From a plasmid, in sequence record NZ_OX291475.1: a stretch of DNA of 64,000 nt. The stretch is one strand, 5' to 3'. Below, piece by piece: positions 1-34,201 of the stretch (position 1 is the stretch's first letter; every line of letters begins with the position of its first letter). The notes beneath the pieces were generated by a model that saw only the letters and a list, made by a program, of their open reading frames with translations, did no database searches and was not told the origin of the DNA. Position numbers and translations under genes: made by a program.

Positions 1-213
1 TCGCGTGCTGGATAGCATCCCAGTTGATCCCAACATTGGCATCATGGTTGTCATGAACGATTTCCATCGCCGCCTCAATTTCGCAGGCAGTCAGCGCACC
101 GTCTAACTCAAGAAAATCATCATCCAGCCAAAAACTGCCCACACACAAAGCGTCTTCGGGATAGCGTTTTAAACGGGTAATCAGCCCTGCAATCGTCATT
201 CGTTCAAACATTG
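1..213 (-). CDS. hypothetical protein, 5' part only (gene continues beyond window start)
   Basis: Reverse-complement of 1-213 translates from ATG at 213 as MFERMTIAGLITRLKRYPEDALCVGSFWLDDDFLELDGALTACEIEAAMEIVHDNHDANVG... with no stop before window edge; same orientation as downstream leading-region genes. Confidence 0.35.
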
Positions 214-264
214 TGGTATTTCCTTTTGTGCCTAAAAGCGCCCCAAAGGGGCGAAACCGCCGTA

Positions 265-669
265 TTACCCGCCGTAATTCGGGACGTTACCTAATACATA
301 TTCCGGGCCAACAACCTCGGCGTAACCGTATTCATCACGCTCTTCTGACCATTCCAGATCGTCACTGGCACTGTCGATATATTCACCACACGCATAGACG
401 TGATAACCGCAGAACCCCTCGCCTGCCTCACTGAACGTATGAATGACGTGACAGGAAAACTGTTTACTCAGCGCCCGGATATCGGCACATTCCGGAGGCG
501 CCCAACGAGTATCAAAATCAATCTGCACAGTCCCTTCAAAGGCTGTCACATCAACATCGGCCTCGTTGAAAAAACTCACTTCTCCTTCGTCCCGGGCAAA
601 ATCGGTCACGGCGGTCAGTTGATCTGGGTTTCCAGTCACGATAATTCGGTTTGCACACCAGTTAGGCAT
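265..669 (-). CDS. hypothetical plasmid leading-region protein (N-terminus MPNWCANRIIVTGNPDQ; possibly DUF1281-like)
   Basis: ORF 265-774(-); internal Met giving MPNWC start chosen at 669; acidic C-terminal tail; assignment to a family is from memory only. Confidence 0.45.
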   Translation of the reverse strand: MPNWCANRIIVTGNPDQLTAVTDFARDEGEVSFFNEADVDVTAFEGTVQIDFDTRWAPPECADIRALSKQFSCHVIHTFSEAGEGFCGYHVYACGEYIDSASDDLEWSEERDEYGYAEVVGPEYVLGNVPNYGG

Positions 670-774
670 CATTCTTCTCCAGTCAGGTTGTCGGATATCG
701 GCTTGCGCCGTAGCCAAAACACAGACGTGCGCAAAGCGGAGAATGCAGGGGCCGTACCGCAGGCCGCAGCGCAA

Positions 775-1090
775 ATGACTGACCGCAGGGAGGGAGTGCG
801 AACGGGAGAGGATACGGGCAACGCGAACCCTTGCAGGCGTAGCGGCACGGCTACGTTCGGGCTACGGCGTAAGCCCAGGCGACGCCATACCCTTTTGATC
901 CCCGCCTGCAGGGCGGAAAAAGGGGAGAAAGCACGAAGGTTAATATCAGGGGATCGGTCGCGGCCGGTTCGAGGCCGGCAGTGACCGTTTGGGAGGAAAA
1001 AGGAAAATGACAATGCAGACGGGAGTGCGATGTTTCGGGGCCCCGGCTCTGCCGGGGATCCTTTTCGTGGCCAGCCCTGGCCACCATAAA
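775..1090. repeat. GC-rich structured repeat, copy 1 (shared core GAGTGCGAACGGGAGAGGATACGGGCAACGCGAACCC); candidate single-strand promoter/leading-region element
   Basis: Core motif GAGTGCGAACGGG(A/T)GA plus flanking CGCAA..GAACCCTTG recurs at 4345-4715 and 5540-5695, each immediately upstream (5') of a minus-strand gene. Confidence 0.4.
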
Positions 1091-1097
1091 CCCTGTG

Positions 1098-1655
1098 CTA
1101 GTTCACGTCGATATTGACCAGTTGTTCCAGCACCTGCAGCAGCCTGGCACACGGATAACTTGACCAGACCGGCAACAACGTGGCCAGCGTAACAGCCTGG
1201 GCGGCCAGCATCAGCCGACGTGGCAAAAGCCCCTGCTCATAGTGCTTGACGGTCCGCAGCGAAACCCCCAGATAATCCGCGGTCTGTTTTTGCGTCCAAC
1301 CCAGCGAGCCCCGCCAGGCCTTCATACCTGCAGAAGGCATAACAAGCGATATCACGCCCCTGGACTGGGGTGTTGTCTGGTCATGGCGCGTTAGTGCCTG
1401 CAGTTGCAAAACAATTTGCGGTTGGTCCATCCGGAGCAAATCGGGGAGCAGGCGGATCAACATCAGTGTCTGGATCCCCAGACGAGCCGATCGGGACACG
1501 CCGCTATTTTCATAGGTTCGGTAAGTCCGTTCTGACACCCCCAGAGCCTGGGCAGCATCCTCTTGCCGCCAATGGCTACCAGGACGTAGCGAACGCGCCT
1601 CAGACAGCGTAAAGTATTGACCGGCACGCCATAATCTCAATTCAAAAACATCCAT
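1098..1655 (-). CDS. transcriptional regulator with two tandem XRE-type helix-turn-helix domains
   Basis: 185 aa ORF; two HTH-like segments (..QEDAAQALGVSERTYRTYENSG.. and ..WTQKQTADYLGVSLRTVKHYEQG..). Confidence 0.55.
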   Translation of the reverse strand: MDVFELRLWRAGQYFTLSEARSLRPGSHWRQEDAAQALGVSERTYRTYENSGVSRSARLGIQTLMLIRLLPDLLRMDQPQIVLQLQALTRHDQTTPQSRGVISLVMPSAGMKAWRGSLGWTQKQTADYLGVSLRTVKHYEQGLLPRRLMLAAQAVTLATLLPVWSSYPCARLLQVLEQLVNIDVN

Positions 1656-1738
1656 GCATTGCCATCCCTTCTAAAAAACAGGCAATTTATGCACCCTGAA
1701 ACGCAATAACAAACACAGTAACCGGCAATAATTGCCCC

Positions 1739-2143
1739 TTAGAGCAATTTACCCAGTTTCTTACGCGCTTCACCAAGGGGAGCCAATTCGCTCGGCTGCT
1801 GAACAGGTTCGACCGGAACCACCGATCGACAATCATCACCGGACAACGCCGTAATCACGTCGCGGATCGCCGCCATTTCGGGTTTCCAGCCGGTTGTCTG
1901 GCCGACCAGGTTGACCAGCTGCTCGCTGGTCAACTGCCCGTTATACATCGTGGCCAACAACACCGGTAACCGTGGATCGAGCTGATGTAATGCCGCCGTT
2001 GTGATGATGGCATTACGCAGGAAATCCCCGCGTACTCGCTGCGAAATAGATTCAACCACATCCAGGGCATGGCGGTCAGCTTCGCAGTCCAGCTGCAAAT
2101 AGCTGGTAAATTTACGGCGGGTCTCACTGCTGTTATCGCTCAC
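1739..2143 (-). CDS. parR: ParR/StbB-like partition adaptor (downstream partner of ParM)
   Basis: 134 aa ORF immediately downstream of the actin-like ATPase gene with 2-nt spacing, same strand; typical parMR operon architecture. Confidence 0.5.
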   Translation of the reverse strand: MSDNSSETRRKFTSYLQLDCEADRHALDVVESISQRVRGDFLRNAIITTAALHQLDPRLPVLLATMYNGQLTSEQLVNLVGQTTGWKPEMAAIRDVITALSGDDCRSVVPVEPVQQPSELAPLGEARKKLGKLL

Positions 2144-2145
2144 GG

Positions 2146-3120
2146 TTATCCCTCTTGTTTATACAATGCCATTTCACTCGCCAGCGCCATTTGTGGGCTT
2201 TCGACCAACGTTATACGCTCTGCCGGCAGTTTCCAGGCTTTTCTTACCGCAGATTCTATCAGCGGAGCGCCCCCACCGACCAGCCAAACCCGGTTAACGT
2301 GGCGGAATCGCGCCAGTTCGTTCACCACACGATCGCCAAGTCGGGTGATGCCGTGCTCTATCGCTGCGATAACGTCATCAACCCGGGACGCATCATTAAC
2401 CAGCTGCGACAAAAAGGCGCGATCATGGCGGCGCTGGATCACCGTATCAGCAACATAGGCGCTCGTATCGCTGTCCGCCATACGCAGCGCCGTCAACGTG
2501 GCCTGCGTCACCATCGAAACACCAATCGTTGGATTGCCGTGGATTGCCGTCACATCGTCGAACTGCCCGACAATGACTCCGGCATCGAGCGTCGTGCCGC
2601 CCAAATCGATAACCAGGGACGTTTCCAGCGGCCCGACATTCTCCCGCACCAGGGGAGAAAACACTGCAGGCAGGGATTCAGGCATCACTTCAACAGCCTC
2701 CACGGTAAAGGCCTCCCCCTTGTTCAACGTCACAGGTCGAAGCAGGTTGTCGATTTTTCGCTGAATATTAACCGTGTTTTTCTGACAGTCTTCGGTATAA
2801 AACTCACTGATCGGCAATGTGACGGTCAGCTTAACCGCTTGCGGCTCCACACCACTGTTTAGCAAGGCATGATGCACAGCCAGGAGGTTGGTATCACCGT
2901 ACTGATACTCAATGTTGGTCGTGCTGATCGCCTGTTGGCTGACATCGTCAAAGGTGTACTTCACGCCATCAACGAGATAGTTGAACGTGCGACGGCTGCC
3001 GATACCATCGATTTTCCATCCCTGACGGAAAGAATTGGGTGACAAGGTCGTGCGTAAATCCCCCTCCACATACCAGGCCAGTTTCACATTGGTAGAACCA
3101 TCATCACAGCAAATATGCAT
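2146..3120 (-). CDS. parM: ParM/StbA actin-like plasmid segregation ATPase (type II partition)
   Basis: 324 aa; N-terminal MHICCDDGSTNVK (StbA/ParM-like start), actin-fold phosphate motifs (VIDLGGTTLD, VWLVGGGA). Confidence 0.8.
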   Translation of the reverse strand: MHICCDDGSTNVKLAWYVEGDLRTTLSPNSFRQGWKIDGIGSRRTFNYLVDGVKYTFDDVSQQAISTTNIEYQYGDTNLLAVHHALLNSGVEPQAVKLTVTLPISEFYTEDCQKNTVNIQRKIDNLLRPVTLNKGEAFTVEAVEVMPESLPAVFSPLVRENVGPLETSLVIDLGGTTLDAGVIVGQFDDVTAIHGNPTIGVSMVTQATLTALRMADSDTSAYVADTVIQRRHDRAFLSQLVNDASRVDDVIAAIEHGITRLGDRVVNELARFRHVNRVWLVGGGAPLIESAVRKAWKLPAERITLVESPQMALASEMALYKQEG

Positions 3121-3124
3121 TTCA

Positions 3125-3320
3125 CACCCCTTTAGTTACTCAATTTGAGTATCATTATAAGAAAAACATAACCCACATCAAGATAAAGTTACTCATATTG
3201 AGTAAATAAAAGAACTCAATATGAGTTTTTATGTATTCACCCGCATCGTTACGCATCAAACTGAGTTACTTTATGATTGAAGAGCCCCCTACTGGCTCCA
3301 TTGATACTCAGCATGAGTAT
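3125..3320. promoter_or_regulatory. parC-like centromere/promoter region: array of palindromic ACTCAATnTGAGT-type repeats upstream of parM
   Basis: TTACTCAATTTGAGTA, TTACTCATATTGAGTAA, AACTCAATATGAGTT, TGATACTCAGCATGAGTATCA all within 200 bp directly 5' of parM. Confidence 0.55.
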
Positions 3321-3375
3321 CAATGGAGCTTTGTCGCGCCGCGGTACTTTCATGAACGCGAACCAGGCGACACTT

Positions 3376-3747
3376 TTAACCCACCGACGTCATACAGAAC
3401 TCGGTTTGTGTAATGAGAAATTCGAGATGACCTTGTTTCTCGAGCAGGTGGTCAAAGGTCGGATCGTCCGACGGGAGGCGCTCCATAAAGTCGTCCCCAC
3501 CACATAACCGGCAGGCGTCCTCAAACACGTCACCACTGTCACGGATCGTCGGATCCAACCCTTCCGCATAGGCCAGTAACCGCTTTCCTTTGGTACGCGC
3601 TGCCGCCATCAAATACACCCCTTCATCTTTGACCAGCAGCACATCACACCCCTGTTGGCGTGCATGTGTGATCACCTCAAATGTCTTTTTACCTTTGAAA
3701 CAAATCTTGTTATTCATAGTGATATCCAATTTTTTAGCAGACGACAT
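3376..3747 (-). CDS. hypothetical protein (leading-region, unknown function)
   Basis: 123 aa ORF, minus strand, co-oriented with neighbours. Confidence 0.4.
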   Translation of the reverse strand: MSSAKKLDITMNNKICFKGKKTFEVITHARQQGCDVLLVKDEGVYLMAAARTKGKRLLAYAEGLDPTIRDSGDVFEDACRLCGGDDFMERLPSDDPTFDHLLEKQGHLEFLITQTEFCMTSVG

Positions 3748-3762
3748 TCATCGCCCTGATGA

Positions 3763-4258
3763 TTATTTGTAGACTTCGGCGATGACGGTCGTCAGTGCAT
3801 TCGGGTTCGACAACGGCTCCAGACGGGCACTCAGCAGGACCAGTTCTGTCGCCAGTAATCGGGCCGAAACGCTGAAATGTTGATCATGCTGCTTGCGACT
3901 ATTGATGTAGGTCAGAAGTGCGAATGCAGCATCCGGGTGACTTGCCTCCATCGCGGTAAACCCGGTGGTTTCCGCGTCAAAGTGCCCCATCGCTGTCAGT
4001 AATACTGCCTGTCGCCATAACGGAAAATCGTCATAGACACCGGCGGTGTGCAGGTGTTGCCCAAGGTGGTAGAGATCGGCCATCAAATCGGTGAAAACCG
4101 TGGTGACATCGCGATCATCGCCCGGGCATCGTTCCAGAAACGCCAATACGGCTTCCGCCGCCCCGGAGACGCGGACCAAAGCGGCCTCATCCTGCAGCGC
4201 ACTGTTCGTCTGGTTGCTGGCCAGTTCAGCCAGAACCTCTTTCAATGATTTCGTCATA
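3763..4258 (-). CDS. hypothetical protein (leading-region, unknown function)
   Basis: ORF 3763-4410(-); start placed at internal Met (MTKSLKEVLAEL..) because upstream part overlaps the GC-rich repeat. Confidence 0.4.
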
Positions 4259-4344
4259 AACCCTCCCGTTTCGACTTCTTTCTGGTGTATACCCCTTTTG
4301 GCTTTTTGCCGGCGCGGGGTGACTGGCGCCGTGACAACTTGACC

Positions 4345-4715
4345 GGGACGGGGTATCAGCTGACGATGCAAGGGCGGGACCGCAAGCCGCACGCGCAAGC
4401 GAACGACCAACGGGAGAGAGTGCGAACGGGTGAGGATGCCGGCGAAGCGAACCCTTGTAACGGCAGCGCCCCGGCCCAGGGTCAGTCACGGGGACGGACG
4501 CCTTGCGCGTAGCCAGGGCTAAGGGGATACACCAGAAAGGGCCAGGCTTTTGCCTGGCGGCATCAGCGAACGACCGCACAAGCGGTCGGGCAGTGAAAGC
4601 GGCGCCGGCGATTAGCCGGCTGCAAGCGTTGGGTGCATTGGTTCCTGCCGGCTCAACGCCGGTTGGAACCAACAGGGCAGCAAAAACAGACAGAAAAGGG
4701 GCCATGCCCCCTTCC
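4345..4715. repeat. GC-rich structured repeat, copy 2 (core GAGTGCGAACGGGTGAGGATGCCGGCGAAGCGAACCC)
   Basis: Shares core and flanks with 775-1090 and 5540-5695; lies directly upstream of the 3763-4258 gene. Confidence 0.4.
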
Positions 4716-4717
4716 CC

Positions 4718-5488
4718 TTAAACAGCGTGGAATAACGTCTTGAATTTCGTGACCATATCAACCATACGAAGTCTTTCGCTCCAGTCGTTGGCGTAATAAA
4801 TCGGGGTATGCCTGACCCGGGACATTTTCATCGTCAATGTATTTCCGGTATAGACCGAGGCCGGTAATCCCAATAGCGCAAGCTGGATAAAACACATATC
4901 CGCAGCCAAGGGATCGATATCTGTACAACGGATGTAGAGCACTTGTTGCGGGTTATACCCTTTAGAGAGCAGGTGTTCAGCAACGGCGATCACCATGCCG
5001 CCCGAACCACTGGCAGGTTCATCCAACGTGATAAACGGGCGATGCTCCAGCTCTTTAACATGGTCGCCAAGTGTCAGGGCGGCAATGAGTCGTGATACTT
5101 CACATGGCGTGAAAAATTGCCCCATCGATGACGAGCCAAATTCAAGCTCCATAAATATCCCGCCCAACAGGTCATCCATTCCCCCTTCCATCGCGCCGAT
5201 TAAGAAACAAAAAAGTTGCTGCATCCTCTGCAGATCAACAGCCTCGTATCGCTTACAAATCTGAACAGCTTCTTCCCTGCCCTCCTCTGACCGTACTCGC
5301 GCCAAATCGAGTTCGTTAGCCGCCAGGCGAATGAAGTCGCGGAAAACATCGAGACGACGGTGATAGGTCGCGATAACAGAGAACGTTTTGATGAATTGCT
5401 TCCTGGCTTCGCGTGGCGTCATATGCGGCGCACATTGAGCCGGGGTTTCAGGGGCTAACAGTGCATCGAAGGAAAGTTGGTTGCTCAT
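4718..5488 (-). CDS. orphan N6-adenine/N4-cytosine-type DNA methyltransferase (no adjacent restriction gene)
   Basis: 256 aa; SAM-binding motif I LDEPASGSGG and catalytic FFTP motif (amino-MTase motif IV-like); no nuclease partner in neighbourhood. Confidence 0.7.
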   Translation of the reverse strand: MSNQLSFDALLAPETPAQCAPHMTPREARKQFIKTFSVIATYHRRLDVFRDFIRLAANELDLARVRSEEGREEAVQICKRYEAVDLQRMQQLFCFLIGAMEGGMDDLLGGIFMELEFGSSSMGQFFTPCEVSRLIAALTLGDHVKELEHRPFITLDEPASGSGGMVIAVAEHLLSKGYNPQQVLYIRCTDIDPLAADMCFIQLALLGLPASVYTGNTLTMKMSRVRHTPIYYANDWSERLRMVDMVTKFKTLFHAV

Positions 5489-5539
5489 GGTGTGTCTCCC
5501 TTGGGAGGCAAGAACTCATTTTCTCGCCATGGCGCAAAA

Positions 5540-5695
5540 AAAAGACTCGCCAGTCAGGGATGTGGCAGGTACGACGGCCGAAGCCGCATGCGCAAACGAG
5601 TGGAACAACGTGAAAGGAGTGCGAACGGGTGACGCCGACGGCGCCAGCGAATACTTGCCACAGACCAGCGCGAGGCTAGGTTAAGCGCGGCGAAA
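5540..5695. repeat. GC-rich structured repeat, copy 3 (core GAGTGCGAACGGGTGACGCCGACGG)
   Basis: Third copy of the motif family, directly upstream of the methyltransferase gene. Confidence 0.4.
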
Positions 5696-5724
5696 CATGA
5701 GATCTCGCGCACCATCAGACAACA

Positions 5725-5845
5725 ATCAAAGTAATATCATTTTAATATCATTACAGTCTCATAAAACAGGCTTGACACACAAACCCAAAAGACTATTATT
5801 TAAACCTCATTTCACTATCAAAGTAATATTAAAAAAAGGTAGAAA
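5725..5845. repeat. partition-site-like cluster of TAATAT(T/C)A palindromic repeats upstream of parA
   Basis: CAAAGTAATATCATTTTAATATCATTACAG (5732-5750) and CAAAGTAATATTAAAA (5824-5831); same motif recurs at 6522, 6839 and 7424. Confidence 0.5.
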
Positions 5846-5849
5846 CGAT

Positions 5850-6494
5850 ATGATTATAACAGTAGGTAACACCAAGGGCGGGGTAGGCAAAACCACTTTG
5901 GCAGTAAACATCGCTGCAGCACGAGCACAACAGGGTCGAGATGTATTATTGATAGATGGGGATCGACAAGGCACGGCTCAAATCGCTGTTGGTATAAGGG
6001 CAAATGATGATTCTCTGCCAGGCATCGCCTGTGTGTCTTATCCCGAAGGACCGATCCTTCGTACTCAAGTGCTCCAGCAAAAGATGAAATATGATGACAT
6101 CATCATTGACGCAGGCGGCAGAGACTCCACAGCGTTACGTGCTGCTTTAGTGCTATCCGATGCACTGTTGGTTCCATACCGCCCTGGAAGCTTCGATGTT
6201 TGGGCTCTTGAAGACATATCTGCACTTATCAAGGAAGCGCGGAGTGTGAGAGATGGGTTGAACGTTTTCGCTATTATCAACGCTGCTGACTCCAATCCAC
6301 ACTCGATTGATAATCGAGAGGCTGCAGAAGTGATTGCAGACTTCCCAGAACTGACACTAATCCCCAAACATATTGTGGCGCGTAAAGCGTGGTCGAATGG
6401 GGCAGCATCAGGGAAATGTACGCTTGAAATGAAACCAAGAGATCCCAAAGCTGACGCTGATCTGGAAAGATTAATTTCAATCTTATTTTCATAG
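5850..6494 (+). CDS. parA: ParA/ParF-type Walker-A partition ATPase (type Ib)
   Basis: Start at [20 protein letters not shown] (deviant Walker A); 214 aa; followed by small RHH protein. Confidence 0.8.
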
Positions 6495-6509
6495 TCATTT
6501 AACACTATT

Positions 6510-6535
6510 TGAATATCAAAGTAATATTAATAAAC
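6510..6535. repeat. TAATATTA palindrome repeat between parA and parG-like gene
   Basis: TATCAAAGTAATATTAATAAAC at 6514-6535. Confidence 0.4.
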
Positions 6536-6552: not shown

Positions 6553-6825
6553 ATGGCTATTGTAAGACCCACGAAAAAACACACTACCCCTGCTGAAGAC
6601 AGCGCAGCAGAAGCCTTTATAAATTCGGCTCCAGATGGCGCGGCAACGCGAAGAAAGGGCGTAGTAAAGGGCAAACGCCAACAGATCACGTTAACGATAG
6701 ATCCTGAGATTTTGGACCGGCTCGATGTAAAAGCCGCTGAAGATGGCGTGTCTCGGGCTGCGCTCATCAACATCGCAATTCGCCAGCTATTGAACCGAGG
6801 AGCCACAGTTGGAGGCGGGAGTTAA
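6553..6825 (+). CDS. ParG-like ribbon-helix-helix centromere-binding protein
   Basis: 90 aa; C-terminal RHH-like segment (KRQQITLTIDPEILDRLDVKAAEDGVSRAALINIAIRQLL); sits immediately after parA. Confidence 0.6.
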   Translation: MAIVRPTKKHTTPAEDSAAEAFINSAPDGAATRRKGVVKGKRQQITLTIDPEILDRLDVKAAEDGVSRAALINIAIRQLLNRGATVGGGS

Positions 6826-6908
6826 TTAACTATCATTTTAATATTAAAACACTATGAAAACAGGGTTGTTTGAATTGCATTTTGGATGGTAATTGAGAGG
6901 AATAACCA

Positions 6909-7337: not shown

Positions 7338-7409
7338 CAGAATAGTTGAGCATATCAATACACTCATCGCCAATCAAAACAGGATTACTACAACATTAAT
7401 AAGATACAT

Positions 7410-7445
7410 TTTTGATATCATTTTAATATTAAAGTGATATCAAAA
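7410..7445. repeat. TGATATCA-TTTTAATATTAAAG-TGATATCA composite palindrome (same TAATATTA core as partition repeats)
   Basis: 7414-7442; both halves and the centre are palindromic. Confidence 0.45.
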
Positions 7446-7452
7446 ACACAAT

Positions 7453-13216: not shown

Positions 13217-15838
13217 ATGTATCCCGTATTTGAGAATGGATCCTGCTGGGTCAAGGTGGATTTTCATCTTCATACCCGTGCAGATAAAGAATTTCGCTAT
13301 GTCGGGGAACCCGACAGCTATATTCGTGACTACGTCAGTGCCCTGAAAGCGGCTGATGTGGGAGTAGGCGTGATCACCAATCATAATAAATTCGATCCCG
13401 GAGAGTTTAAGGCATTACGCAAAGCCGCGCGCCGTGAAGGCACTGAGCTGCTTCCCGGCGTGGAACTCTCTGTCAATGATGGTCAGGCCGGCGTGCACAC
13501 GCTTGTGGTGTTTGCCGATGACTGGTTCATCAACCCGCAGCAGACGAATCATATTGAAAGTTTCCTGACGGCCACGTTTGCGGGCGTTGATAATTTTGAG
13601 AACGAAAATGCCCGTTCAATAGAAAATATCACTCAGACCATCCAGCGCCTTGACCGGTATGAACGGGATTACTTCATTGTGTTTGCCCACGTTGAAGCCC
13701 CTAACGGGTTATGGCGCGGGTTCAGCCCTGGCCGGATCGGGGAGCTTTTTGATAATGAGCTTGTCCGCCGGCGCGTGATGGGGTTTCAGAAGGTGATGAC
13801 CCACGACCTGCGGGTTAAAATTCACGGCGTTCTTGGTAGGCGCTATCCTGCAGAAGTCCAGGGATGCGATGCCAAAACGCTGGATGACATCGGTGCCAGA
13901 AAAGTCGCCAGCTATCTGAAGCTGGGTGATTACAGTTTTGACGCTGTCCGATTTGCGCTGCAGGATTTCCCGCACCGCGTCAGCGGGGAAAAACCGGCCC
14001 TTATCCACAGCCATATCCGTCAGATAGCATTCGAGGGAGCCGGTTCGCTCGGCGGAACCGTGGTGAAATTATCTCCGGAGCTGAACACCCTGATTGGGAT
14101 CCGCGGCAGCGGAAAATCCTCCATACTTGAAGGGATCCGCTATGCCCTGGACATTCCGTTTGGCGAGAAGGCATCTGACCGCGACTACAAAGAAAATCTG
14201 ATCAGTAATTTACTCAAAAGCGGGGGGAAAATTACCGTCGACGCCGTGTGCCGTCTCGGGCGGGCATATCAGATAACCCGAATTTTCGGCCAGGAACCGC
14301 AGGTCATTTTTGACGGCCAGGCCAGGCACGGGGTCGCGCTCCGGGAAACGGTTCTGCACAAGCCAGTGTATTTTGGCCAGAAAGATCTGTCCAATACCGG
14401 CGCAGGGTTTGAACACGATCTGATTGAAAAGCTGGTCGGTGAGCGACTGGTTCCCGTGCGAGAAAAAATCCGGCAGCAGAATACAGTCGTGCTCGACAGG
14501 TTACGCCTGCTTCGTCGCCTGAAAAAATCGGGAGAAGCACTCTCAGAATGGCAGGCAAAAAAGGCGGATGCGCAGTTCCGCCTGCGCTTTTATGCCCAGC
14601 ATGGCATGGAAGAAAAACTGGAGCGGCAGACCACCTTCGGACGGGACGAGCGCTATCTCAGCAATACCTCTGCCCAGGCAACCCAAGCGCTGGACAGTCT
14701 GCAGGACGGTATCAGGGAGACACTCGACGAGTTGAAGCAGGAGCAGAAACATGAATCAGCGCATAACCAGGCCGAGATCGATGACTATTGTGAGGGATAT
14801 GATCGCTTCACGACCCATCTCAACTCCCTGAACACCATCGTCGACGGCGCCCGCCAGCTCCTCACAGAACTCGATACTAAGCAGCAGGCCTTCCAGCAGA
14901 AAAAGCAGGCGCTGACGGAGGAATTTGCCGAAATAGAGCGAGGCCTTGCAGAAGAGTTGCGGCGGGCCGGGGTGGAAAAAGCCGATCCGGCCGACTTTCT
15001 GAAACTAAAGGCTGGGCTGGAAACTGCGGAAGAGAAAATAGATGAGTTAACCCGGGCTGAAACCAGTCAAGCGTTACAGGAGAAGAGCCTCACAGAAGCG
15101 CTGAGCCGGTTGGCTGAACTCTGGGGGGAAGAGTATCACGAAATTGAAGCCGTGCTGGCCACCATCAACCAGGCAGATTCGCCCTTGAAGATCGTGCCGG
15201 CCTTTGCAAGCGACAAAAAAGCCATGCAATCTTTTCTGAAAGAAACGTTTATTGGCAGCCGGTTGCGGGAAAGTACCTACCAGACCGTAGCTGACGGCTT
15301 CAGCGATTTTGGCGAACTCTGGCTGAACAGGGATAAACTCCAGGGGATTATCAACGGCTCTGCTGAGACGTTCGGTGTGTATCTGGAACAGCAGATAGAA
15401 TCGCTAATCGTCTGGCAGATCCCGAATACCTACACCATTGAATTCCGCGGAAAACCACTGGAACAACACTCGCTGGGTCAGCGCGCCTCCGCATTAATGC
15501 TGTTTGTCCTGAATCAGCAGGATAATGATGTGGTGATCATCGATCAGCCCGAAGACGACCTGGACAATCAGACGATTTATGACGACGTGATTAAAATCAT
15601 CAGGACGATGAAACCCCGCACCCAATTTATCTTTGCCACTCACAATGCCAACATTCCGGTTCTGGGTGACGCAGAGAATGTCTGTGCCTGTGAATATTCA
15701 GACGGAAAGATCCAGGCTGCCGGTGGAGGCGTGGATGCACCTCATGTACAACAGCACATTATTTCGGTGATGGAGGGCGGGCGAGAAGCCTTTGAGCGGC
15801 GCAGGGAAGTTTACGGCTCATGGCTCAGTAAAACCTGA
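13217..15838 (+). CDS. PHP-domain phosphoesterase fused to Rad50/SbcC-like ABC ATPase with central coiled coil
   Basis: 873 aa. N-term PHP signature (VDFHLHTRAD.., ..GVITNHN.., ..VFAHVE..); Walker A GIRGSGKSS; Q-loop VYFGQKD; ~200-aa E/K/Q/L-rich coiled-coil region; signature-like HSLGQRAS; Walker B VVIIDQPEDDLD; H-loop FATHNANI. Confidence 0.8.
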   Translation: MYPVFENGSCWVKVDFHLHTRADKEFRYVGEPDSYIRDYVSALKAADVGVGVITNHNKFDPGEFKALRKAARREGTELLPGVELSVNDGQAGVHTLVVFADDWFINPQQTNHIESFLTATFAGVDNFENENARSIENITQTIQRLDRYERDYFIVFAHVEAPNGLWRGFSPGRIGELFDNELVRRRVMGFQKVMTHDLRVKIHGVLGRRYPAEVQGCDAKTLDDIGARKVASYLKLGDYSFDAVRFALQDFPHRVSGEKPALIHSHIRQIAFEGAGSLGGTVVKLSPELNTLIGIRGSGKSSILEGIRYALDIPFGEKASDRDYKENLISNLLKSGGKITVDAVCRLGRAYQITRIFGQEPQVIFDGQARHGVALRETVLHKPVYFGQKDLSNTGAGFEHDLIEKLVGERLVPVREKIRQQNTVVLDRLRLLRRLKKSGEALSEWQAKKADAQFRLRFYAQHGMEEKLERQTTFGRDERYLSNTSAQATQALDSLQDGIRETLDELKQEQKHESAHNQAEIDDYCEGYDRFTTHLNSLNTIVDGARQLLTELDTKQQAFQQKKQALTEEFAEIERGLAEELRRAGVEKADPADFLKLKAGLETAEEKIDELTRAETSQALQEKSLTEALSRLAELWGEEYHEIEAVLATINQADSPLKIVPAFASDKKAMQSFLKETFIGSRLRESTYQTVADGFSDFGELWLNRDKLQGIINGSAETFGVYLEQQIESLIVWQIPNTYTIEFRGKPLEQHSLGQRASALMLFVLNQQDNDVVIIDQPEDDLDNQTIYDDVIKIIRTMKPRTQFIFATHNANIPVLGDAENVCACEYSDGKIQAAGGGVDAPHVQQHIISVMEGGREAFERRREVYGSWLSKT

Positions 15839-19039: not shown

Positions 19040-20110
19040 TCAGGCCTTTTTAACAGCAGTGGCTATTGGCTGACCACCTTGTTGCGTACTCTGCTCCGGC
19101 TCAAATGTAACCCTGTCATGCACCGCATAAGCGTTCATGCCCCCCACAAAGGCACCGGCAAAGGCAGTAAAGGTCTTTTTGTCCTTTTCGCTTTGAATCA
19201 TCACTATCTGGCTTGCCACGTTAATATTAACAACAACGCCAGTATGACGGGTTTCCAGCAGTGTATTTCCCAGCCACTGTTCACCACTAATAATGTCAAG
19301 TTCGGAAAGGCCGGCTGGCAGTCTCTTGTTTTTCCACAACGAGTGCGGACTGCATAGCTCGTTTACATTTTGGGTGTTTTCAATAATGCTCAACAATTTT
19401 AGATTAGACGGGTTGATCCATCGAATCACCTCGATACAGCGATGATATTCACGGGCAACTTTATTAATGGCCTGTTCGACAGAGTAGGTTTTATCAGAAC
19501 GCCATAATGGCTCGTGATGGGATATTCTGTTACGTAACGTATTTATATCCCGGAGATCTGCACCAATTCTGTTTATTGATAATGCTTTGCCATTTTTATT
19601 GGCATGGGGAAAAACGCGTGAAGTCAAGTCCGGCCATAAAGAAAGATAGTTGCAATAATTGGCATGAGTACGATCATATTTCTTGTCGACCAATGACACC
19701 CAAAATCCGAGTGTTAACTTTGAGATGAGATTTTCTGTTGTGTGCGGCTTTCCATCTTTATTAAGTTGACCTTTTGCCGCCGCGATAGCTTTAAACGATG
19801 TATTGTTGTTTGCCTGCGTCATTACAGTTACAAACCACTTATCATCGATATTCCCTTTCTTCTGCGCCCAGGTTGGTTGAGGATGGAGCCGTTTTATTTC
19901 ATCTTCTTCGAAAGCCTGTTTGGCCCCGCAAATGGCATTCCTTAATGAGACCTCGATCACCTGCAGTGCGGGAAGGAATGCGCCGGCGAGCTGTTTATTC
20001 CATAGATAAATGCCCAGGCACTCTTCTGGTGTGGCGCCGTTGAAAACGGAAGATTGGTAGGTTGCAAATCGGTGCTGTGATATAGAGCTTAAAATAGCCG
20101 CAATCGTCAT
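19040..20110 (-). CDS. Abi_2 (AbiD/AbiF)-like abortive-infection protein (HEPN superfamily)
   Basis: 356 aa; ..INTLRNRISHHEPLW.. resembles the conserved R-N-x-x-S/A-H-H motif I recall for the Abi_2 family. Confidence 0.5.
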   Translation of the reverse strand: MTIAAILSSISQHRFATYQSSVFNGATPEECLGIYLWNKQLAGAFLPALQVIEVSLRNAICGAKQAFEEDEIKRLHPQPTWAQKKGNIDDKWFVTVMTQANNNTSFKAIAAAKGQLNKDGKPHTTENLISKLTLGFWVSLVDKKYDRTHANYCNYLSLWPDLTSRVFPHANKNGKALSINRIGADLRDINTLRNRISHHEPLWRSDKTYSVEQAINKVAREYHRCIEVIRWINPSNLKLLSIIENTQNVNELCSPHSLWKNKRLPAGLSELDIISGEQWLGNTLLETRHTGVVVNINVASQIVMIQSEKDKKTFTAFAGAFVGGMNAYAVHDRVTFEPEQSTQQGGQPIATAVKKA

Positions 20111-22730: not shown

Positions 22731-24133
22731 GGGGTCAGTTTGGATATCGAAAATTATTGTACTATAAGGGCTTCCCCGGCATGTCAACGCCGGTGTTTAC
22801 GGTTTCTGTCTGCACTATAGTAAAAAAATAAAGGGGAGAGACTGCGGTACTATAAACGGTCATGATGAATCGTCATCGATTCGGACCCTGATGAAAGACG
22901 CTCGTGAGGCTCTAGTTCGTTAGTCGGGTACACTTGCCCTGTACAATAAGCAGATATACCTCACGGGGTCTAACCCTTTATCATCAACGAGTTGCAGAAC
23001 AGATGGTCATACAGCTTTGTACTTTAGCTGGCTGAGTACAACCTGAAATCATCACCGTAATGCAATGATGCCCAGCACAGTCTTGCATTTTTGGCAGCGA
23101 TGGCAACAACAGCGCGCCAGTATCCTCTGCGTTCGACCAGTGAGCAGACCCAACGACTGAATAAATCAGTCCTTTTCTCCGCCCCGATCAGTACCGAGCG
23201 GGCACCCTGAACCAGAAGTGTTCTCAGATACGAATCGCCAGCTTTCGTTATCCTGCCAAGCTTCGACTTTCCGCCGCTGCTGTACTGCGATGGTGTCAGT
23301 CCCAGCCAGGCTGCCAGCTGGCGCCCATTCTTAAAATCATGTGCATTACCGATACTGGCGACCAGCGCACAGGCCGTTGTGGGGCCAACGCCCTTCAATT
23401 CCATCAGCCGCTGACTGCGATGATCTGTTTTGGCCATGCGGGACAAAATTCGGTCATATTCAGCGATGTTATCTTCAATGCGAGCAACGTGCTCCAGCAA
23501 ATCATCAACACATTGCTGAACCTGAAGTGGTAAAGAATTCTTCTGCTCAAAAACTATGTGGCGCAGGGCATCTGTACTTTGTGGGGCGATAACGCCGAAT
23601 TCAGATATCAACCCCCGGAGACGATTATATGTTGCTGTTTTCTCTTCGATAAAACCCTGTCGGGTACGATGCAGACACTGCATTGCCTGCTGGCTCTCAT
23701 CCTTAACCGGCACAAACCGCATATGTGGGCGACGAACCGCCTCGCAGATAGCCTGAGCATCAGCTGCATCATTTTTCCCTGATTTACCAGCCATGCGGTA
23801 AGGCGATACAAATTTAGCGGCCATCAGACGCGGCTCATGACCATACTGCCGAAACAGTCTTGCCCAGTAATGAGCCCCGGAGCACGCCTCCATCCCGATA
23901 ACACAGGGCGGCAAACCAGCAATCAGCCCGGGAAGAGCTGCGCGGGTTACTCTGGATTTAACCAGAACGGTTTTGCCATTCTGGTCAACGCAATGAACAG
24001 CGAACACATTTTTAGCAAGATCGATACCGACAGTAGTAATGGTCATAACGAATCCCTCCGGGGTTGTGTTTACCCCATGATTGCACAAGAGTTAATCAGG
24101 CACATAATCAGGGGAAGTCCCTTCCATTCGTTA
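22731..24133 (-). mobile_element. IS110-family insertion sequence (copy 1) occupying the terminal inverted repeat of the outer transposon
   Basis: Inverted duplicate of 39845-41247; outer 28 bp GGGGTCAGTTTGGATATCGAAAATTATT and inner ..CATTCGTTAAG look like split halves of a Tn3-type IR; IS ends show AAGGG(A)CTTCCCC inverted repeats. Confidence 0.6.
23024..24088 (-). CDS. IS110-family transposase (DEDD)
   Basis: 354 aa; MTITTVGIDLAKNVFAVHCVDQNGK.. N-terminus; identical copy at 39890-40954(+). Confidence 0.85.
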   Translation of the reverse strand: MCNHGVNTTPEGFVMTITTVGIDLAKNVFAVHCVDQNGKTVLVKSRVTRAALPGLIAGLPPCVIGMEACSGAHYWARLFRQYGHEPRLMAAKFVSPYRMAGKSGKNDAADAQAICEAVRRPHMRFVPVKDESQQAMQCLHRTRQGFIEEKTATYNRLRGLISEFGVIAPQSTDALRHIVFEQKNSLPLQVQQCVDDLLEHVARIEDNIAEYDRILSRMAKTDHRSQRLMELKGVGPTTACALVASIGNAHDFKNGRQLAAWLGLTPSQYSSGGKSKLGRITKAGDSYLRTLLVQGARSVLIGAEKRTDLFSRWVCSLVERRGYWRAVVAIAAKNARLCWASLHYGDDFRLYSAS

Positions 24134-26672
24134 AGGTTATTTTTTGACCTGCCTAATTTAGCTGGCCTCAGCCGACGAAACTTACCGGCTGACGGTATCC
24201 GGTTGCTTTTCCATATATAATCGCCTGTCAGATTGATGTGTTCCCAGCCTAGCGGGGACAAATGCGACAGCAGTTGCTCGTTGATCTTCACTCCCTTACG
24301 CTTCAGAGCATCGACAGCTCTTTCCATATAGACGGTATTCCACAGGGATATGGCAGCTGTCAGGAGCGTCAGTCCACTGGCGCGATAGCTCTGATTTTCC
24401 GGTTTTCGGTCCCTGATTTCTCCCAGCCGGTGCATAAATACCGCTCGCGCCAGCGCGTTACGGGCTTCACCTTTATTCAGCCCCGCCTGTACCCGCCGAC
24501 GCAGTGCAGGATCGCGGAACCAGTCGAGCATAAACAGAGTTCGTTCAATACGGCCAATTTCTCTCAGTGCTTTGGCCAGCCCGTTTTGCTTGGGGTAGCT
24601 GGCAAGCTTTTTCAGCATCAGGGATGCCGTCACGGTTCCCTGCTTTATCGAGGTTGCCAGACGCAGCACTTCACGCCAGTGAATTTCGATCTCTTTCAGA
24701 TTCAGGCTGGTTGTTGATATCAGTGACTGAAGCGCCGGGTACTGGCCTGCTTTCCCTTTGATAAATAGCTTCTTGTCGTGGAGATCCCTGATTCGCGGAC
24801 AGAACGCAAATCCCAGCAGATGCATCAGGGCAAAGACATGATCGGTGAAACCCGCTGTATCGGTGTAATGCTCCCTGATTTCCAGGTCGCTTTCGTGGTA
24901 CAGCAAGCCATCGAGCACATGGGTTGAATCTCTGACCCGACTGATTATGCAGGTGTAAAACGGGCTGTATTGATCCGAAATATGGGTATAAAACTGACGT
25001 CCGGGCTCCTGCCCGTATTTCGGGTTAACCTGCCCTGCGTAGCGGCCTGATCTGCCTGTTCTGAAATTCTGTCCATCTGATGATGATGTTGTCCCGTCTC
25101 CCCAGAATGCCGCCAGCGGCCTTTTCCCCTGCGCGTTTACCAGCTCTGCAAGGGCTGCTGAATAGGTTTCGTCGCGGATGTACCATGCCTGAATATCTTC
25201 GAGTGATGATTTGGTGCTACCGGGGCAGGCTTCCGCCATTTTGGTCAGGCCAAGATTGATGCCATCCGCAAGAATGGTGGTGAGAAGCAGGCGGATATCG
25301 GGACGGGTAATGTCAGTTTTTATATGCGAAAAATGTCGGGTAAACGTCGTCCAGCTGTTTACCTCATCGAGAATTTCCGTGATTTTAGGGCGCGGTAGCA
25401 TGCTGTAAACCAGCTCTGCCAGCGGTGAAACCTGCACCGGAACGCTGTTATCCAGCGGAGAGACTTTTACGCCCCTGTAAGATATTTCCACATCGGGCAG
25501 TTCACCAAGGGCAGCCATGGCATTGACCTCTTCAAGCCTGGACTGAAGCAGGGTCATACGGCTGGTAATGTACTCATGATAATCAGCAGATACGGGAAGT
25601 GGCAGCGCCGGTGTGAGTTTGTCAAAGTCCTTTTCGGGAATGAGGTAATCATCAAAATTTTTGTAGCGGCGTGAGCCTTTAACCCAGATGTCCCCGGAAC
25701 GCAACGCCCCCTTAAGCTCGCTGAGCGCACAAAATTCATAGTACTGCCGGTCAATACCCGCAGGTGTAATTACCACCTTGCGCCAACTTTCTGGGACAAA
25801 CTCAAGCGGCGCGGTGGCCGGAACTTTACGTGACTGCTTCCGGTACATATCCTTGATCACAACCAGCGCATCAGCCAGAGGTTGCGCTGCCGGAGTTGCG
25901 ATTAACTGTAAAGCTGACAACATGCGCGGGGCATATTTCCGTAATGTGCTGTATTTCTCGGTAATAATATGCAGCGGGTCAAAATTATTTTTTCTGGCGA
26001 GATGGCGTGTTTCCTCCAGACTGGCGACAAATTCAGGCCATGGGAGTATGTTTTCTATTGCGAGCCATGGATCTCCCCCGGAATCACGGGCATCAGACAG
26101 CGCCTGACCGACATTGATGTACTGCCTCAGTTTTGACTGGATCAGCTTTCCGGTCTGCTGAAGGCGCTCAGCCTGTGTTCTTTTGGCTTTGCTGAAAAGG
26201 CTGTTCAGCATTCGCTCATGCAACTCAATCACTTCGTCTGTCAGTGTGGCTCTGGCTTCTTCCAGCACGCACACCAGGATCGCATGACGCCGGGCTGCTG
26301 AAAATCGGGTCAAATCCCGGCTGCTCATCTTTCGGCCTTCCCGCGCCAGTTTCAGCAACCGGTTCTGGTGAATGGTACGATCTATACCTTCCGGTAATGC
26401 CAGCGATTCAATGCTACTGAGCCGATCAAGGTGTTGCAGCACGTTCTTACCATTGATTTTACCCGGAGGTTGCAGAAGCCATGTCAGCCTGGAAGACTGA
26501 TTATCCGATGACTCAAGTAAACAATCCAGAGCATCCCTGTGAGCCGGAGTTAACGGGGCATTCAGGGTCTGAAACACGATTTTATCGCCGCCTGCCATGG
26601 CCTCAGCACAGGAACGCTCCACGACATCAATCGAGGGGATTATCACGTTGTTCTGCCGGAGCCAGACCAGTA
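24134..26672 (-). pseudogene. tnpA: Tn3-family transposase TnpA of outer transposon, C-terminal 85% (split by inner transposon; 3' end reads through into IS)
   Basis: ..[16 protein letters not shown].. DDE region; continues in frame with N-terminal piece at 35551-35990 when the 26673-35549 insert plus one CAGTA are removed. Confidence 0.8.
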
Positions 26673-26694
26673 GGGGTCGTCTCAGAAAACGGAA

Positions 26695-28020
26695 TCTATG
26701 GTCACTCCCGTTTTTGCAACACCGATTTTGACGACAAGTTGGCTTGCTTGAATCTATCCGGCGTCTGAATGGGATTTTATTCCCGCGCCTTGATGAGTTC
26801 CGCGCCTGATGAACCTCCAGAAAATATACGGCTTCAATGAGCCTTTCCGTTTTACAGGTTCCTCAACAGGCCGGTGGGCCGTTAGTATCATCAATATCAG
26901 TATTCGCAAAACCAGATCAGTAATTCTTTAAACCGGTGTATTTCTGCCGTTATGCTACATAAGTTTGCTGTCGTGCCGTTAGGGCCCAGGCTATTCTGGC
27001 CAGCTTGTTTGCCAGAGCACAAGTGACGACAAAGTTGCTTTTCCGGCACAGTAAATCCCTGACCCAATCGGCCAATTTGCCAGACTGGTGTTCCAGTTTT
27101 TGTATGAATACCCTGGCACATTGAACCAACAAAGTTCGGATCTTTTTATTACCTCGCTTACTAATTCCCAGCAATGTCGTCCTACCTCCCGTGCTGTACT
27201 GCCGAGGTACAAGCCCTGTTGCCGCCGCAAAGTCACGGCTGCTGGCGTACTGCTTCCCGTCGCCAATCTCAGTTGAAATAGTACTCGCTGTCAGTGTTCC
27301 GACGCAGGGAATGCTCAGCAAGCGCTGTCCAACCTCATCTTCGTCCAACTTTCGTTTCAACTGGGATTCCAAATCTTTAATCTGCTCAACAAGATAGTGA
27401 TAATGCTGTTGTAATTTCAGCAATAACTGGCTGAGGTAAAGAGGCAAACTATTATCCTCAAGAATGGTACTCAGTCGGCTAATAACGGCAGCTCCTCGGG
27501 GAACGCTAATGCCAAATTCCAGCAGAAAAGCATGCATTTGATTGGTTGTTTTTACCTTATCCTGAACCAGGGATTCACGGACACGATGCAGAGCCCGCAT
27601 TGCCTGCTGAGATTCCGTTCTGGGCTGCACAAAACGCATAGACGGACGCGATGCAGCTTCACAAATAGCTTCGGCGTCGACAAAGTCGTTTTTATTGCTT
27701 TTAACGAACGGGCGGACAAATTGTGGTGATATCAGCTTTGGGGAATGCCCCAACTCTTCCAACTTGCGTGCCATAAAGTGAGAACCGCCACAGGCTTCCA
27801 TTGCGATGGTTGTAGCGGGGCATGTCGCCAAAAATTCGATCAACTTTGGCCGGGTAAATTTTTTACGGTAAACAGCCTTCCCGCGACGATCCTGGCAATG
27901 AATATGGAAAGAGTTTTTACCCAGATCGATACCAATGAGCGCAATGTTTTCCATGATAGTTCTCCGAATGAAAGCCTGTCCTCAGCATAGTACCGGGAAG
28001 GAGGGAGTGACCATCTCATT
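26695..28020 (-). mobile_element. IS4321/IS5075-like IS110-family element (1326 bp), copy 1, inserted in left IR of inner transposon
   Basis: Inserted between IR positions 22/23; ends TCTATGGTCACTCCC ... GGGAGTGACCATCTCATT; identical inverted copy at 34202-35527. Confidence 0.75.
26950..27954 (-). CDS. IS110-family (IS1111-subgroup) transposase
   Basis: 334 aa; MENIALIGIDLGKNSFHIHCQDRRGK..; identical copy 34268-35272(+). Confidence 0.85.
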   Translation of the reverse strand: MENIALIGIDLGKNSFHIHCQDRRGKAVYRKKFTRPKLIEFLATCPATTIAMEACGGSHFMARKLEELGHSPKLISPQFVRPFVKSNKNDFVDAEAICEAASRPSMRFVQPRTESQQAMRALHRVRESLVQDKVKTTNQMHAFLLEFGISVPRGAAVISRLSTILEDNSLPLYLSQLLLKLQQHYHYLVEQIKDLESQLKRKLDEDEVGQRLLSIPCVGTLTASTISTEIGDGKQYASSRDFAAATGLVPRQYSTGGRTTLLGISKRGNKKIRTLLVQCARVFIQKLEHQSGKLADWVRDLLCRKSNFVVTCALANKLARIAWALTARQQTYVA

Positions 28021-28032
28021 AAATAAAGCACG

Positions 28033-29775: not shown

Positions 29776-30029
29776 AACGTAGTGGTCTCCAAGAACATTC
29801 AGGACTGATCCCAGGCGTCGATGGTCAAGACCTGATCGGCAGGACAGGCGGCTACGCGGTCGGGAACTGGATGGTGTTCAGTCTCATGCCGACCCCATTC
29901 GATTGATCGCGTCGCTTGCGGCACGCTGCGACGCAAGGAGGTTTGCGACCTGGTTTAGCAGCCGTGTCCGCTGCATGTCTGTTACCTATCTCCCCGACCG
30001 CTCATTGGACCAACTCCAGAGATTGGGCT

Positions 30030-34189: not shown

Positions 34190-34201
34190 CGTGCTTTATT
34201 T

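Follow-up and report, generated by a model that had tools for sequence, protein, structure and literature searches.

Structured repeats ahead of minus-strand genes in a Serratia-type plasmid as probable class 2/3 single-stranded DNA promoters of the leading region

Near one end of a 64,000-nucleotide stretch of plasmid DNA (sequence record NZ_OX291475.1; hereafter the window, that is, the whole 64 kb analysed), three copies of a structured repeat precede genes encoded on the minus strand, among them that of an orphan DNA methyltransferase, which raises the question of what these repeats do. A preliminary description of the sequence had taken them for single-strand promoters of the Frpo/ssi type, lying in a leading region. 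We consider it highly probable that they are hairpin promoters of the leading-region transcription units, made for single-stranded DNA (ssDNA), and the argument is built on the repeats themselves, on hairpins with covarying stems, on a strand bias, on homology to validated promoters and on polarity relative to oriT. Judged from sequence, the repeats belong to the class 2/3 (ssp2/ssp3) lineage of ssDNA promoters. Both this family and its mechanism are already known (classes 2 and 3 were published in 2025, and ssp2 of the F plasmid was studied further in 2026), and the locus adds another example.

The 18-nt core of the repeat, GAGTGCGAACGGGWGASG, has exactly three matches in the window, all of them on the + strand, at 794-811 (copy 1, where it reads GAGTGCGAACGGGAGAGG), 4418-4435 (copy 2) and 5617-5634 (copy 3). 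By chance 0.16 matches would be expected, and three were reached in none of 100 dinucleotide-preserving shuffles; furthermore, a profile of the repeat family detected only three places in the window, which are the same three copies. The three structured copies of the preliminary description are thus confirmed, and its positions (803, 4421 and 5622) point to the right sites, but are off by 3 to 9 nt. The conserved flanks that it had noticed are also present, with GCGCAA on the 5' side of the cores and, on the 3' side, GAACCCTTG in copies 1 and 2 and GAATACTTG in copy 3. Copies 1 and 2 share 76% identity across 83 nt, and a 27-nt block is common to all three.

In the window, every copy forms the apex of an imperfect hairpin of about 175 to 260 nt, placed directly upstream of a minus-strand transcription unit. 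In particular, the hairpin of copy 1 (686-891, + strand), delimited by an inverted repeat and ssDNA folds, lies upstream of orf134 and the following open reading frame (ORF); that of copy 2 (4278-4539, + strand, 262 nt), delimited in the same way, lies upstream of orf164 and a DUF3085 protein gene; that of copy 3 (5511-5705, + strand), recognized in ssDNA folds, lies upstream of the methyltransferase gene. The intergenic spacers hosting the copies extend over 670-1097 (428 bp, 61% GC), 4258-4717 (460 bp, 64% GC) and 5489-5849 (361 bp, 47% GC overall, with 59% GC in the hairpin part), the window mean being 51% GC. The spacers, which had been described as GC rich and 150 to 370 bp long, are indeed directly upstream of genes and GC rich for copies 1 and 2, but they are somewhat longer than that, and that of copy 3 is not GC rich as a whole.

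To which known elements are these repeats related? The family profile used here comprises 35 copies, taken from Serratia, Yersinia, Enterobacter, Edwardsiella, Aeromonas, Citrobacter, Pseudomonas and IncW R7K plasmids, and no E. coli sequence. This profile matches the plasmid pESBL directly upstream of klcA (E = 2e-17), of ardA (E = 3e-15) and of the DUF1281/M.EcoGIX operon (E = 1e-13), and it also matches two equivalent sites in F, the E-values over the pESBL and F sites ranging from 2e-17 to 1e-11. The klcA and ardA sites are class 2 (ssp2) and the M.EcoGIX site is a class 3 (ssp3) ssDNA promoter according to Wen et al. (2025; NAR gkaf1299, PMC12672017), whose evidence consists of strong early induction in transconjugants by RNA sequencing, transcription starts mapped by 5' rapid amplification of cDNA ends, and a prolonged induction in a uvrD recipient.

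The homology also holds in the reverse direction. By BLAST, copy 2 is matched by both pESBL ssp3 (E = 2.5e-10) and pESBL ssp2 (E = 5e-5), copy 3 by ssp3 (E = 1.8e-6) and copy 1 by ssp2 (E = 1e-3), with no other significant match of ssp2 or ssp3 in the 64 kb. A profile made exclusively of five E. coli plasmid elements likewise matches the three window copies, its one other match in the 64 kb being at chance level (E = 0.71). The E-values of the larger profile for the window do not count as evidence here: identical sequences are part of that profile, and the reasoning would be circular.

Further homologues are found among the 18 sequences of Samuel et al. (2024), whose Frpo* and Frpo'4 elements are direct homologues of the window repeats. 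Frpo*1 matches the window at 700-876 with 73% identity (E = 2e-20), which is also evidence for the copy 1 hairpin, just as the pESBL ssp3 matches are for those of copies 2 and 3; copy 2 is matched by the same set at E = 1.6e-9, and Frpo'4 is 83% identical to pESBL ssp2. Copies 1 and 2 are thus leading-region intergenic sites with E <= 1e-6 to one of the 18 sequences, as Samuel et al. require, and copy 3 is unmatched by these queries even at E <= 1e-3 (the BLAST cut-off of the paper being 1e-6). In that study, Frpo* and Frpo'4 are low-certainty computational candidates without experiments, taken from the insect-gut metagenome OFEI01000013.1, and the candidate sequences are already in use for annotating PLSDB.

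The classical Frpo/ssi elements behave differently. The sequences of F ssiD and ssiE and of ColIb-P9 Frpo1-3 gave no match at E <= 1e-3 in the window or in two Serratia loci (L001 and L002), whereas the same five sequences recovered their own sites in F and pESBL. Homology to class 1 was therefore rejected for want of sequence similarity, together with an apex that is G+C rich rather than A+T rich and UP-like. Of the original assignment to Frpo/ssi-type single-strand promoters, the kind of element stands, by virtue of the ssp2/ssp3 homology, and the class does not.

The comparison with each class can be made more precise. With ssp2 (class 2, upstream of klcA/ardB and ardA in pESBL and F) the window repeats share a homologous core, AAGCCGCA ... 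GA(A/C)CGGGTGA ... GGCGAAGCG-ACCCTTG ... CCCGGCTAAG-T ... GGCACGGC, a position on the transferred strand (T-strand) upstream of leading-region genes of anti-restriction type, a -35 element within the stem, a bubble at the -10 element and, for copy 2, a comparable hairpin stability; different from ssp2, the Serratia copies lack an apical insertion of about 60 nt and number seven per plasmid instead of one or two. Insertions of about 60 nt (ssp2 of pESBL and F) and about 55 nt (one Yersinia copy) fall at one apical site and look unlike each other (alignment A1, columns 130-200; loci L012 12075-12359, L010 8458-8743 and L006 5958-6241), so that the hairpin tip can accommodate extra stem-loops, the invariant motifs on either side being kept. 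The ssp3 element (class 3, of the M.EcoGIX operon in pESBL and its F counterpart) provides the best direct BLAST match to copies 2 and 3, has the same compact apex with no insertion and, in both plasmids, would drive a distal unit containing a methyltransferase gene, although the methyltransferase of the window is unrelated to M.EcoGIX. Finally, class 1 (F Frpo1/2, that is ssiD, and ColIb-P9 ssi1-3; Masai and Arai 1997; Bates et al. 1999; Nasim et al. 2004) resembles the repeats in being a T-strand hairpin of the leading region that mimics a double-strand sigma-70 promoter and directs transcription towards oriT. However, it has an A+T-rich UP-like apex where the repeats show a G+C-rich one with the invariant GCCGCA / GAACGGG motif, and the Serratia plasmids contain no class 1 copy at all, even the psiB/psiA unit being preceded by a member of the repeat family.

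If the repeats work as ssDNA, their fold should have been conserved on one strand. The predicted fold of copy 1 includes a robust, perfect 16-bp basal stem (700-715/860-875), and the hairpin of copy 2, with -85.7 kcal/mol, is the most stable of the three, its surrounding 462-nt spacer having a z-score of -7.7. Alignment A1, which comprises 37 distinct copies, yielded with RNAalifold 20 consensus pairs that cover the apical domain and the helix containing the -35 element. Compensatory changes occur in 13 of these 20 pairs, and 91.8% of the cells are paired, compared to 27 to 40% when the partners are slid by 1 to 3 columns; the covariation score is 0.368 versus at most 0.105 with slid partners, and no shuffle out of 500 reached the observed values. 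The combination of MAFFT and RNAalifold resolves the apical and -35 helices only. Since the lower stems are too divergent for MAFFT to hold the register, their covariation was tested indirectly, by swapping arms between copies: over 19 non-redundant copies, cognate arms give a mean of -33.3 kcal/mol and non-cognate arms -18.5 kcal/mol, and the cognate arm ranks first in 15 cases.

With regard to the folding strand, 40 of 41 copies are more stable as the + strand, which would be both the template and the transferred strand, than as its complement (means of -54.8 and -46.5 kcal/mol; Wilcoxon p = 2.6e-8, a value that is indicative only, because the copies are not phylogenetically independent). 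Moreover, G·T exceeds A·C by 34 to 7 in the consensus pairs and by 112 to 10 in the individual folds, a bias that favours a folded T-strand, because an RNA leader of the minus-strand mRNAs would show the opposite one. Taken as sequence evidence, the compensatory changes, the co-evolving arms and the G·T bias support folding of the T-strand.

The folded arms contain the elements of a promoter in a fixed arrangement. In all copies, the 3' (non-template) arm presents a TTGnnn hexamer, whose TTG pairs with CAA or CAG of the 5' arm, followed by a spacer of 15 to 16 nt and by a (T/C)AnnnT hexamer. The window copies read TTGCAG-15-TACGTT, TTGTAA-16-CAGGGT and TTGCCA-16-TAGGTT, in register with ssp2 of pESBL and F (TTGCAT-15-TAAGAT) and with pESBL ssp3 (TTGCAT-15-TAACGT). 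On the + strand of copy 1, the -35-like hexamer is at 831-836, where CCCTTG (828-833) pairs with CAGGGG (746-751) of the other arm, and the -10-like hexamer is predicted at 852-857, with A853 and C854 unpaired. The corresponding + strand hexamers are predicted at 4455-4460 and 4477-4482 in copy 2 (a weak -10, with A4478 and G4479 unpaired) and at 5655-5660 and 5677-5682 in copy 3 (hexamer positions 2 to 6 unpaired). Across the 37 copies, A(-11) lacks a pairing partner in 78% and the following two bases do so in about half, as against 17% of the positions in the rest of the arm, which in the folding models amounts to a conserved pre-melted bubble at the base flipped out by sigma-70.

With +1 placed seven bases after the -10 hexamer, transcription is predicted to start at about 864 in copy 1, opposite template position 711 or so, with a leader of about 42 nt to the ATG at 669; at about 4489 in copy 2, opposite approximately 4331, with a leader of about 74 nt to the ATG at 4257; and at about 5689 in copy 3, opposite approximately 5528, with a leader of about 40 nt to the ATG at 5488. 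A consensus scan found no good minus-strand sigma-70-like promoter in the three repeat spacers. Short additional G+C-rich hairpins occur in runs at 897-1085 and 4541-4680, between each ssDNA-promoter hairpin and the preceding gene, and a + strand terminator-like site is present at 1041-1057, where + strand genes are absent; it is a speculation that the latter site might stop rightward transcription from the same hexamers in double-stranded DNA.

No oriT was found within the 64-kb window. Since oriT lies outside it, polarity was examined in the Serratia marcescens plasmid pQC08_2 (AP028558.1; MOBP relaxase, MPF_I), to which positions 1-6500 of the window are 99% identical; the same region is 90 to 98% identical to a large set of Serratia plasmids, with 43 records covering at least 80% of the query. 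In both pQC08_2 and S. proteamaculans EBP3064_p1, relaxase, mobA, [oriT] and mobC are followed by a minus-strand run (DUF932, higBA, psiA, psiB, a ParB-like nuclease gene, an ArdA/YubI-like antirestriction gene and small ORFs), next by the window genes (HTH, for helix-turn-helix, stbB, parM, DUF3085, orf164 and N6-methylase) and finally by a divergent parA. The mobA-mobC intergenic region of pQC08_2 aligns with the R64-type oriT of pESBL, the NikA-site repeat GGGGTGTCGGGGC..GCCCTGACC is present in the oriT of both plasmids, and the nick region reads ACACATCTGGTCCCGT in pQC08_2 and ACACATCCTGTCCCGT in pESBL. As a nick-site match in the pQC08_2-type plasmid, YATCCTGY fails, with ATCTGG at that position, and oriT was identified by the R64-type alignment instead; we take R64 to be nicked after ATCCTG (the IncI1/IncP nick consensus), and the exact nucleotide is not needed for the polarity argument.

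Relative to window position 1, this oriT of pQC08_2 lies about 9.2 kb upstream; it shares its strand with the repeats, which are 9.2 to 14.9 kb away from it. The geometry is like that of pESBL, whose transfer direction is established and where the oriT strand and the hairpin elements are on one strand, with the elements 3' of oriT. We therefore infer that it is the + strand of the window that is transferred, entering 5' to 3' from the nick to its left, and that the region is a leading one, as the preliminary description had supposed, with the copy 3 hairpin as its distal boundary. Since this strand is at the same time the template of the genes, the minus-strand genes are transcribed towards oriT, as has been reported for leading regions generally. 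Seven occurrences of the core motif are present in pQC08_2, always on the + strand, always between the R64-type oriT and parA, and each time upstream of a minus-strand unit, the units including psiB/psiA and ardA-like genes; the window carries the last three of these seven copies. Copy 2 (pQC08_2 locus L002, 17785-18057) is identical over 221 nt to another copy of pQC08_2 (L002, 7213-7433) at a distance of 10.6 kb, which suggests a recent duplication or gene conversion among promoter copies.

The mechanism we adopt for the window is the one established for the homologues. The plasmid would enter the recipient as ssDNA, and long imperfect hairpins, with the repeat as their apex, would form on the transferred (+) strand. 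Their stem would rebuild a double-stranded sigma-70 promoter, in which a TTGnnn -35 element on the 3' arm is paired with CAAGGG of the 5' arm and is followed, after the 15- to 16-nt spacer, by a (T/C)AnnnT -10 element whose A(-11) sits in the small pre-melted bubble. The host RNA polymerase would take the 5' arm as template and run leftwards out of the hairpin, towards oriT and into the minus-strand genes, copy 3 driving the orphan methyltransferase gene, copy 2 orf164 and the DUF3085 gene, and copy 1 the DUF1281_C ORF (orf134) and the next small ORF. Complementary-strand synthesis would then remove the hairpin and switch the promoters off, the expected outcome being a transient early burst of expression (zygotic induction). 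The transcription start sites are predicted, and the promoters would be active only as ssDNA.

Such promoters time the anti-restriction, SOS-inhibition and methylation genes that decide the survival of an incoming plasmid and, once recognized, they allow the leading region, the strand that is transferred and the set of early genes to be read from sequence alone. In the present case, the repeats flag four uncharacterised ORFs and an orphan methyltransferase as candidates for early expression in a Serratia plasmid family that includes the amber-disease plasmid pADAP.

Several points weigh against the assignment as ssDNA promoters. Promoter activity at this locus is deduced from sequence and models, the expression evidence coming from pESBL and F and not from Serratia plasmids, and the identity to the validated E. 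coli plasmid promoters is only 49 to 58%. The hexamers are weak (CAGGGT in copy 2), and a spacer of 15 to 16 nt is suboptimal for sigma-70. In double-stranded DNA, transcription from a weak minus-strand promoter-like site at 5821-5792 could run through copy 3. Polarity is deduced from the sequence of near-identical relatives, oriT being outside the window. Moreover, no clear gain in stability over shuffled sequences is seen for the regions of copies 1 and 3 (z = -2.1 and -1.5, respectively), and for this reason the case for these two copies rests on homology and covariation; conserved ssDNA hairpins with -35/-10-like boxes, which the preliminary description proposed to look for, were obtained with covariation, but thermodynamics alone is significant for copy 2 only. 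Beyond the window, two related plasmids, from Agrobacterium and Pseudomonas, have one extra copy each in the opposite orientation (L134 3041-3151 and L007 3713-3812, both on the minus strand); these reversed copies face the leading-type gene run, an arrangement unfit for a promoter role of those copies.

The alternative that survives best is that the hairpins are mainly replicative, either as single-strand initiation signals that supply RNA primers or as roadblocks that delay the complementary strand, with transcription being secondary. Frpo was first isolated as a priming signal, ssp1 transcripts prime conversion of F in vivo, and F ssp2, a homologue of the repeats, stalls complementary-strand synthesis until UvrD resolves it, which keeps the leading region single stranded for longer (Fraikin et al. 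2026, preprint); copy 2 (-85.7 kcal/mol) is about as stable as F ssp2 (-82.4 kcal/mol). However, pure priming or stalling has no need of copies placed exactly upstream of each gene or operon, of a conserved -35/-10 geometry or of a bubble at A(-11); the pESBL homologues have mapped starts and induced downstream genes, and F ssp3 is devoid of roadblock activity. As the main function we regard replication as improbable, and the idea complements the promoter model instead of excluding it: by analogy, the hairpins may in addition be a source of RNA primers, and the very stable copy 2 may be a UvrD-resolved roadblock to complementary-strand synthesis.

Much less probable, and already disfavoured, is the explanation that the repeats are structured 5' leaders of mRNAs (riboregulators or stabilizers) or double-strand operators of a repressor, with ordinary promoters farther upstream. 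It would agree with the intergenic position of the repeats on the 5' side of each unit, with the HTH regulator encoded nearby and with the weak promoter-like site upstream of copy 3. The mRNA-sense strand, however, is the one that folds worse in 40 of 41 copies, and the G·T wobbles of the + strand become A·C mismatches in the mRNA; the search for a sigma-70-like promoter upstream of copies 1 and 2 was negative, and the units are set apart by terminators. Nor did a scan of positions 1-6500 against Rfam (gathering and E-value thresholds) return any relevant family for the repeats. Furthermore, conservation of the element extends over plasmids of Enterobacterales, Aeromonas, Pseudomonas, Burkholderia and Agrobacterium that have no regulator in common. 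Least probable of all is a selfish or neutral palindromic family, like repetitive extragenic palindromes or miniature inverted-repeat transposable elements, spread without function in plasmid intergenic regions, since, even though the repeats are multicopy and palindromic and copies within a plasmid can be near-identical (L002 7213 and 17785), their orientation is locked to the transferred strand except in the weakest matches, they are confined to the leading region, their arms co-vary while unpaired apical nucleotides stay invariant across plasmids of three proteobacterial classes, and they have homologues with demonstrated promoter activity.

Returning to the repeats as ssDNA promoters, the family proves to be broader than the window suggests. 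It extends to plasmids of Burkholderia (134 records), Pseudomonas, Xanthomonas, Ralstonia and Agrobacterium, and the copies beyond Enterobacterales have the same orientation, ahead of series of small genes, ssb and ardC among them. Class 3 was described as different from all other hairpins (Wen et al. 2025, PMC12672017). Classes 2 and 3 nevertheless align at 60% identity with an invariant core in common and, because of this alignment, the Serratia copies, which are equidistant from both, would link them into one superfamily. In all 37 aligned copies the apical nucleotides GCCGCA, GA-CGG and the first T of TTG are invariant, and the adjacent GGCGAAGCG is highly conserved; an invariant apex beside co-varying stems hints at sequence-specific recognition. 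The class 2/3 alignment, the wide host range and the invariant apex seem unstated in the published accounts consulted. A scan of genome contigs (596 Gb) with the 14-mer GCGAACGGGTGAGG gave 120 loci with one genuine family member (L086, from a Hydrogenophaga metagenome-assembled genome), the pattern being too short.

It is possible to hypothesize, tentatively and with more doubt than conviction, that classes 2 and 3 form one ancient superfamily spanning Alpha-, Beta- and Gammaproteobacteria, in which compensatory changes let the stems drift freely and the largely unpaired apex, AAGCCGCA ... GA(A/C)CGGGTGAGGA ... GGCGAAGCG, directly 5' of the -35 element, is a sequence-specific ssDNA site for a conserved host factor, and that in Serratia plasmids of the pADAP type classical Frpo has been entirely replaced by this family, which drives all seven units of the leading region. 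Candidates for such a factor would be a part of RNA polymerase, SSB, UvrD and PriA. If this were true, the apex would be more than a scaffold for the two hexamers. A unified family with a conserved apical module, as the alignment suggests, could guide mutagenesis and lead to annotation models that are better than BLAST with a few sequences, the published query set missing copy 3.

As for the genes that the repeats precede, all the genuine ones between positions 1 and 5488 are on the minus strand, in agreement with the single orientation noted at the outset. The unit of copy 3 consists of the orphan N6-adenine DNA methyltransferase gene (4718-5488, minus strand; 256 aa; Pfam N6_Mtase). Homologues of the enzyme occur in 2167 PLSDB plasmids, mostly conjugative; the protein has no similarity to M.EcoGIX of pESBL and no sequence match in PDB. 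The terminator scan found an intrinsic terminator after this gene (4692-4716, minus strand) and a second terminator-like hairpin (4541-4558, minus strand); together the two set the methyltransferase unit apart from the one that follows. That unit, downstream of copy 2, begins with orf164 (3763-4257, minus strand), which has no match in Pfam, NCBIfam or PDB and weakly (E = 5.6e-6) matches one PHROG whose function is unknown, and continues with the DUF3085 protein gene (3376-3747, minus strand; Pfam). The first gene after copy 1 is orf134 (265-669, minus strand), with a DUF1281_C (Api92/YubB-like, ferredoxin-like) domain in Pfam, DUF1281 being among the prevalent leading-region families (Samuel et al. 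2024); the second is a small ORF of which the N-terminal part is visible (2-211, minus strand), the window edge cutting the rest. For the small ORFs, DUF1281_C in orf134 and DUF3085 are the only Pfam matches, neither of known function, PHROGs gave unknown-function families only, and NCBIfam gave no match. By their position, it is plausible that the methyltransferase gene and the small ORFs are candidates for anti-restriction, early establishment or anti-defence functions.

A complete parM-parR(StbB)-HTH unit (1098-3181, minus strand) also lies in the leading region, with no ssDNA-promoter repeat ahead of it. Upstream of parM, parC-like palindromes extend over 3131-3329, including a perfect 16-bp inverted repeat at 3295-3329, and these parC-like repeats contain a double-strand sigma-70-like promoter (3181-3154), the only good minus-strand one detected by the consensus scan in positions 1-6000. 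Because it has its own promoter in parC, we regard this unit as an ordinary double-strand unit embedded in the leading region; dependence on the repeats would thus apply to the three units preceded by copies, but not to this one, and so not to every gene of the block.

The rest of the window includes further features. A+T-rich iterons (TATCAAAGTAATATTAAAA and relatives, one of them a 22-nt palindrome) are found at 5724-5836, 6498-6534, 6815-6862 and 7409-7447, flanking the divergent parA and the small genes after it, and probably serve a second partition system as its operator or centromere; parA itself is preceded by a near-consensus + strand promoter, TTGACA-16-TATTAT (5772-5799). An Rfam PK-repBA pseudoknot (45762-45884, minus strand, 91 bits), located upstream of a 415-aa ORF (44705-45952) that has no Pfam match, points to antisense control of replication of the I-complex type, and the ORF may be the gene of the replication initiator. 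Two IS110-family transposase ORFs (26950-27954, minus strand; 34268-35272, + strand), opposite in orientation and equal in their Pfam scores, bracket a Tn3-family transposase gene (31223-34189), and a second Tn3-family transposase gene is at 24070-26646; the region 24070-35272 looks like a transposon mosaic. Finally, there are two possible plasmid-borne defence genes, one (13217-15838) for an 873-aa ATPase that matches AAA_21 and SMC_N weakly, the other (19040-20110) for an Abi_2 protein.

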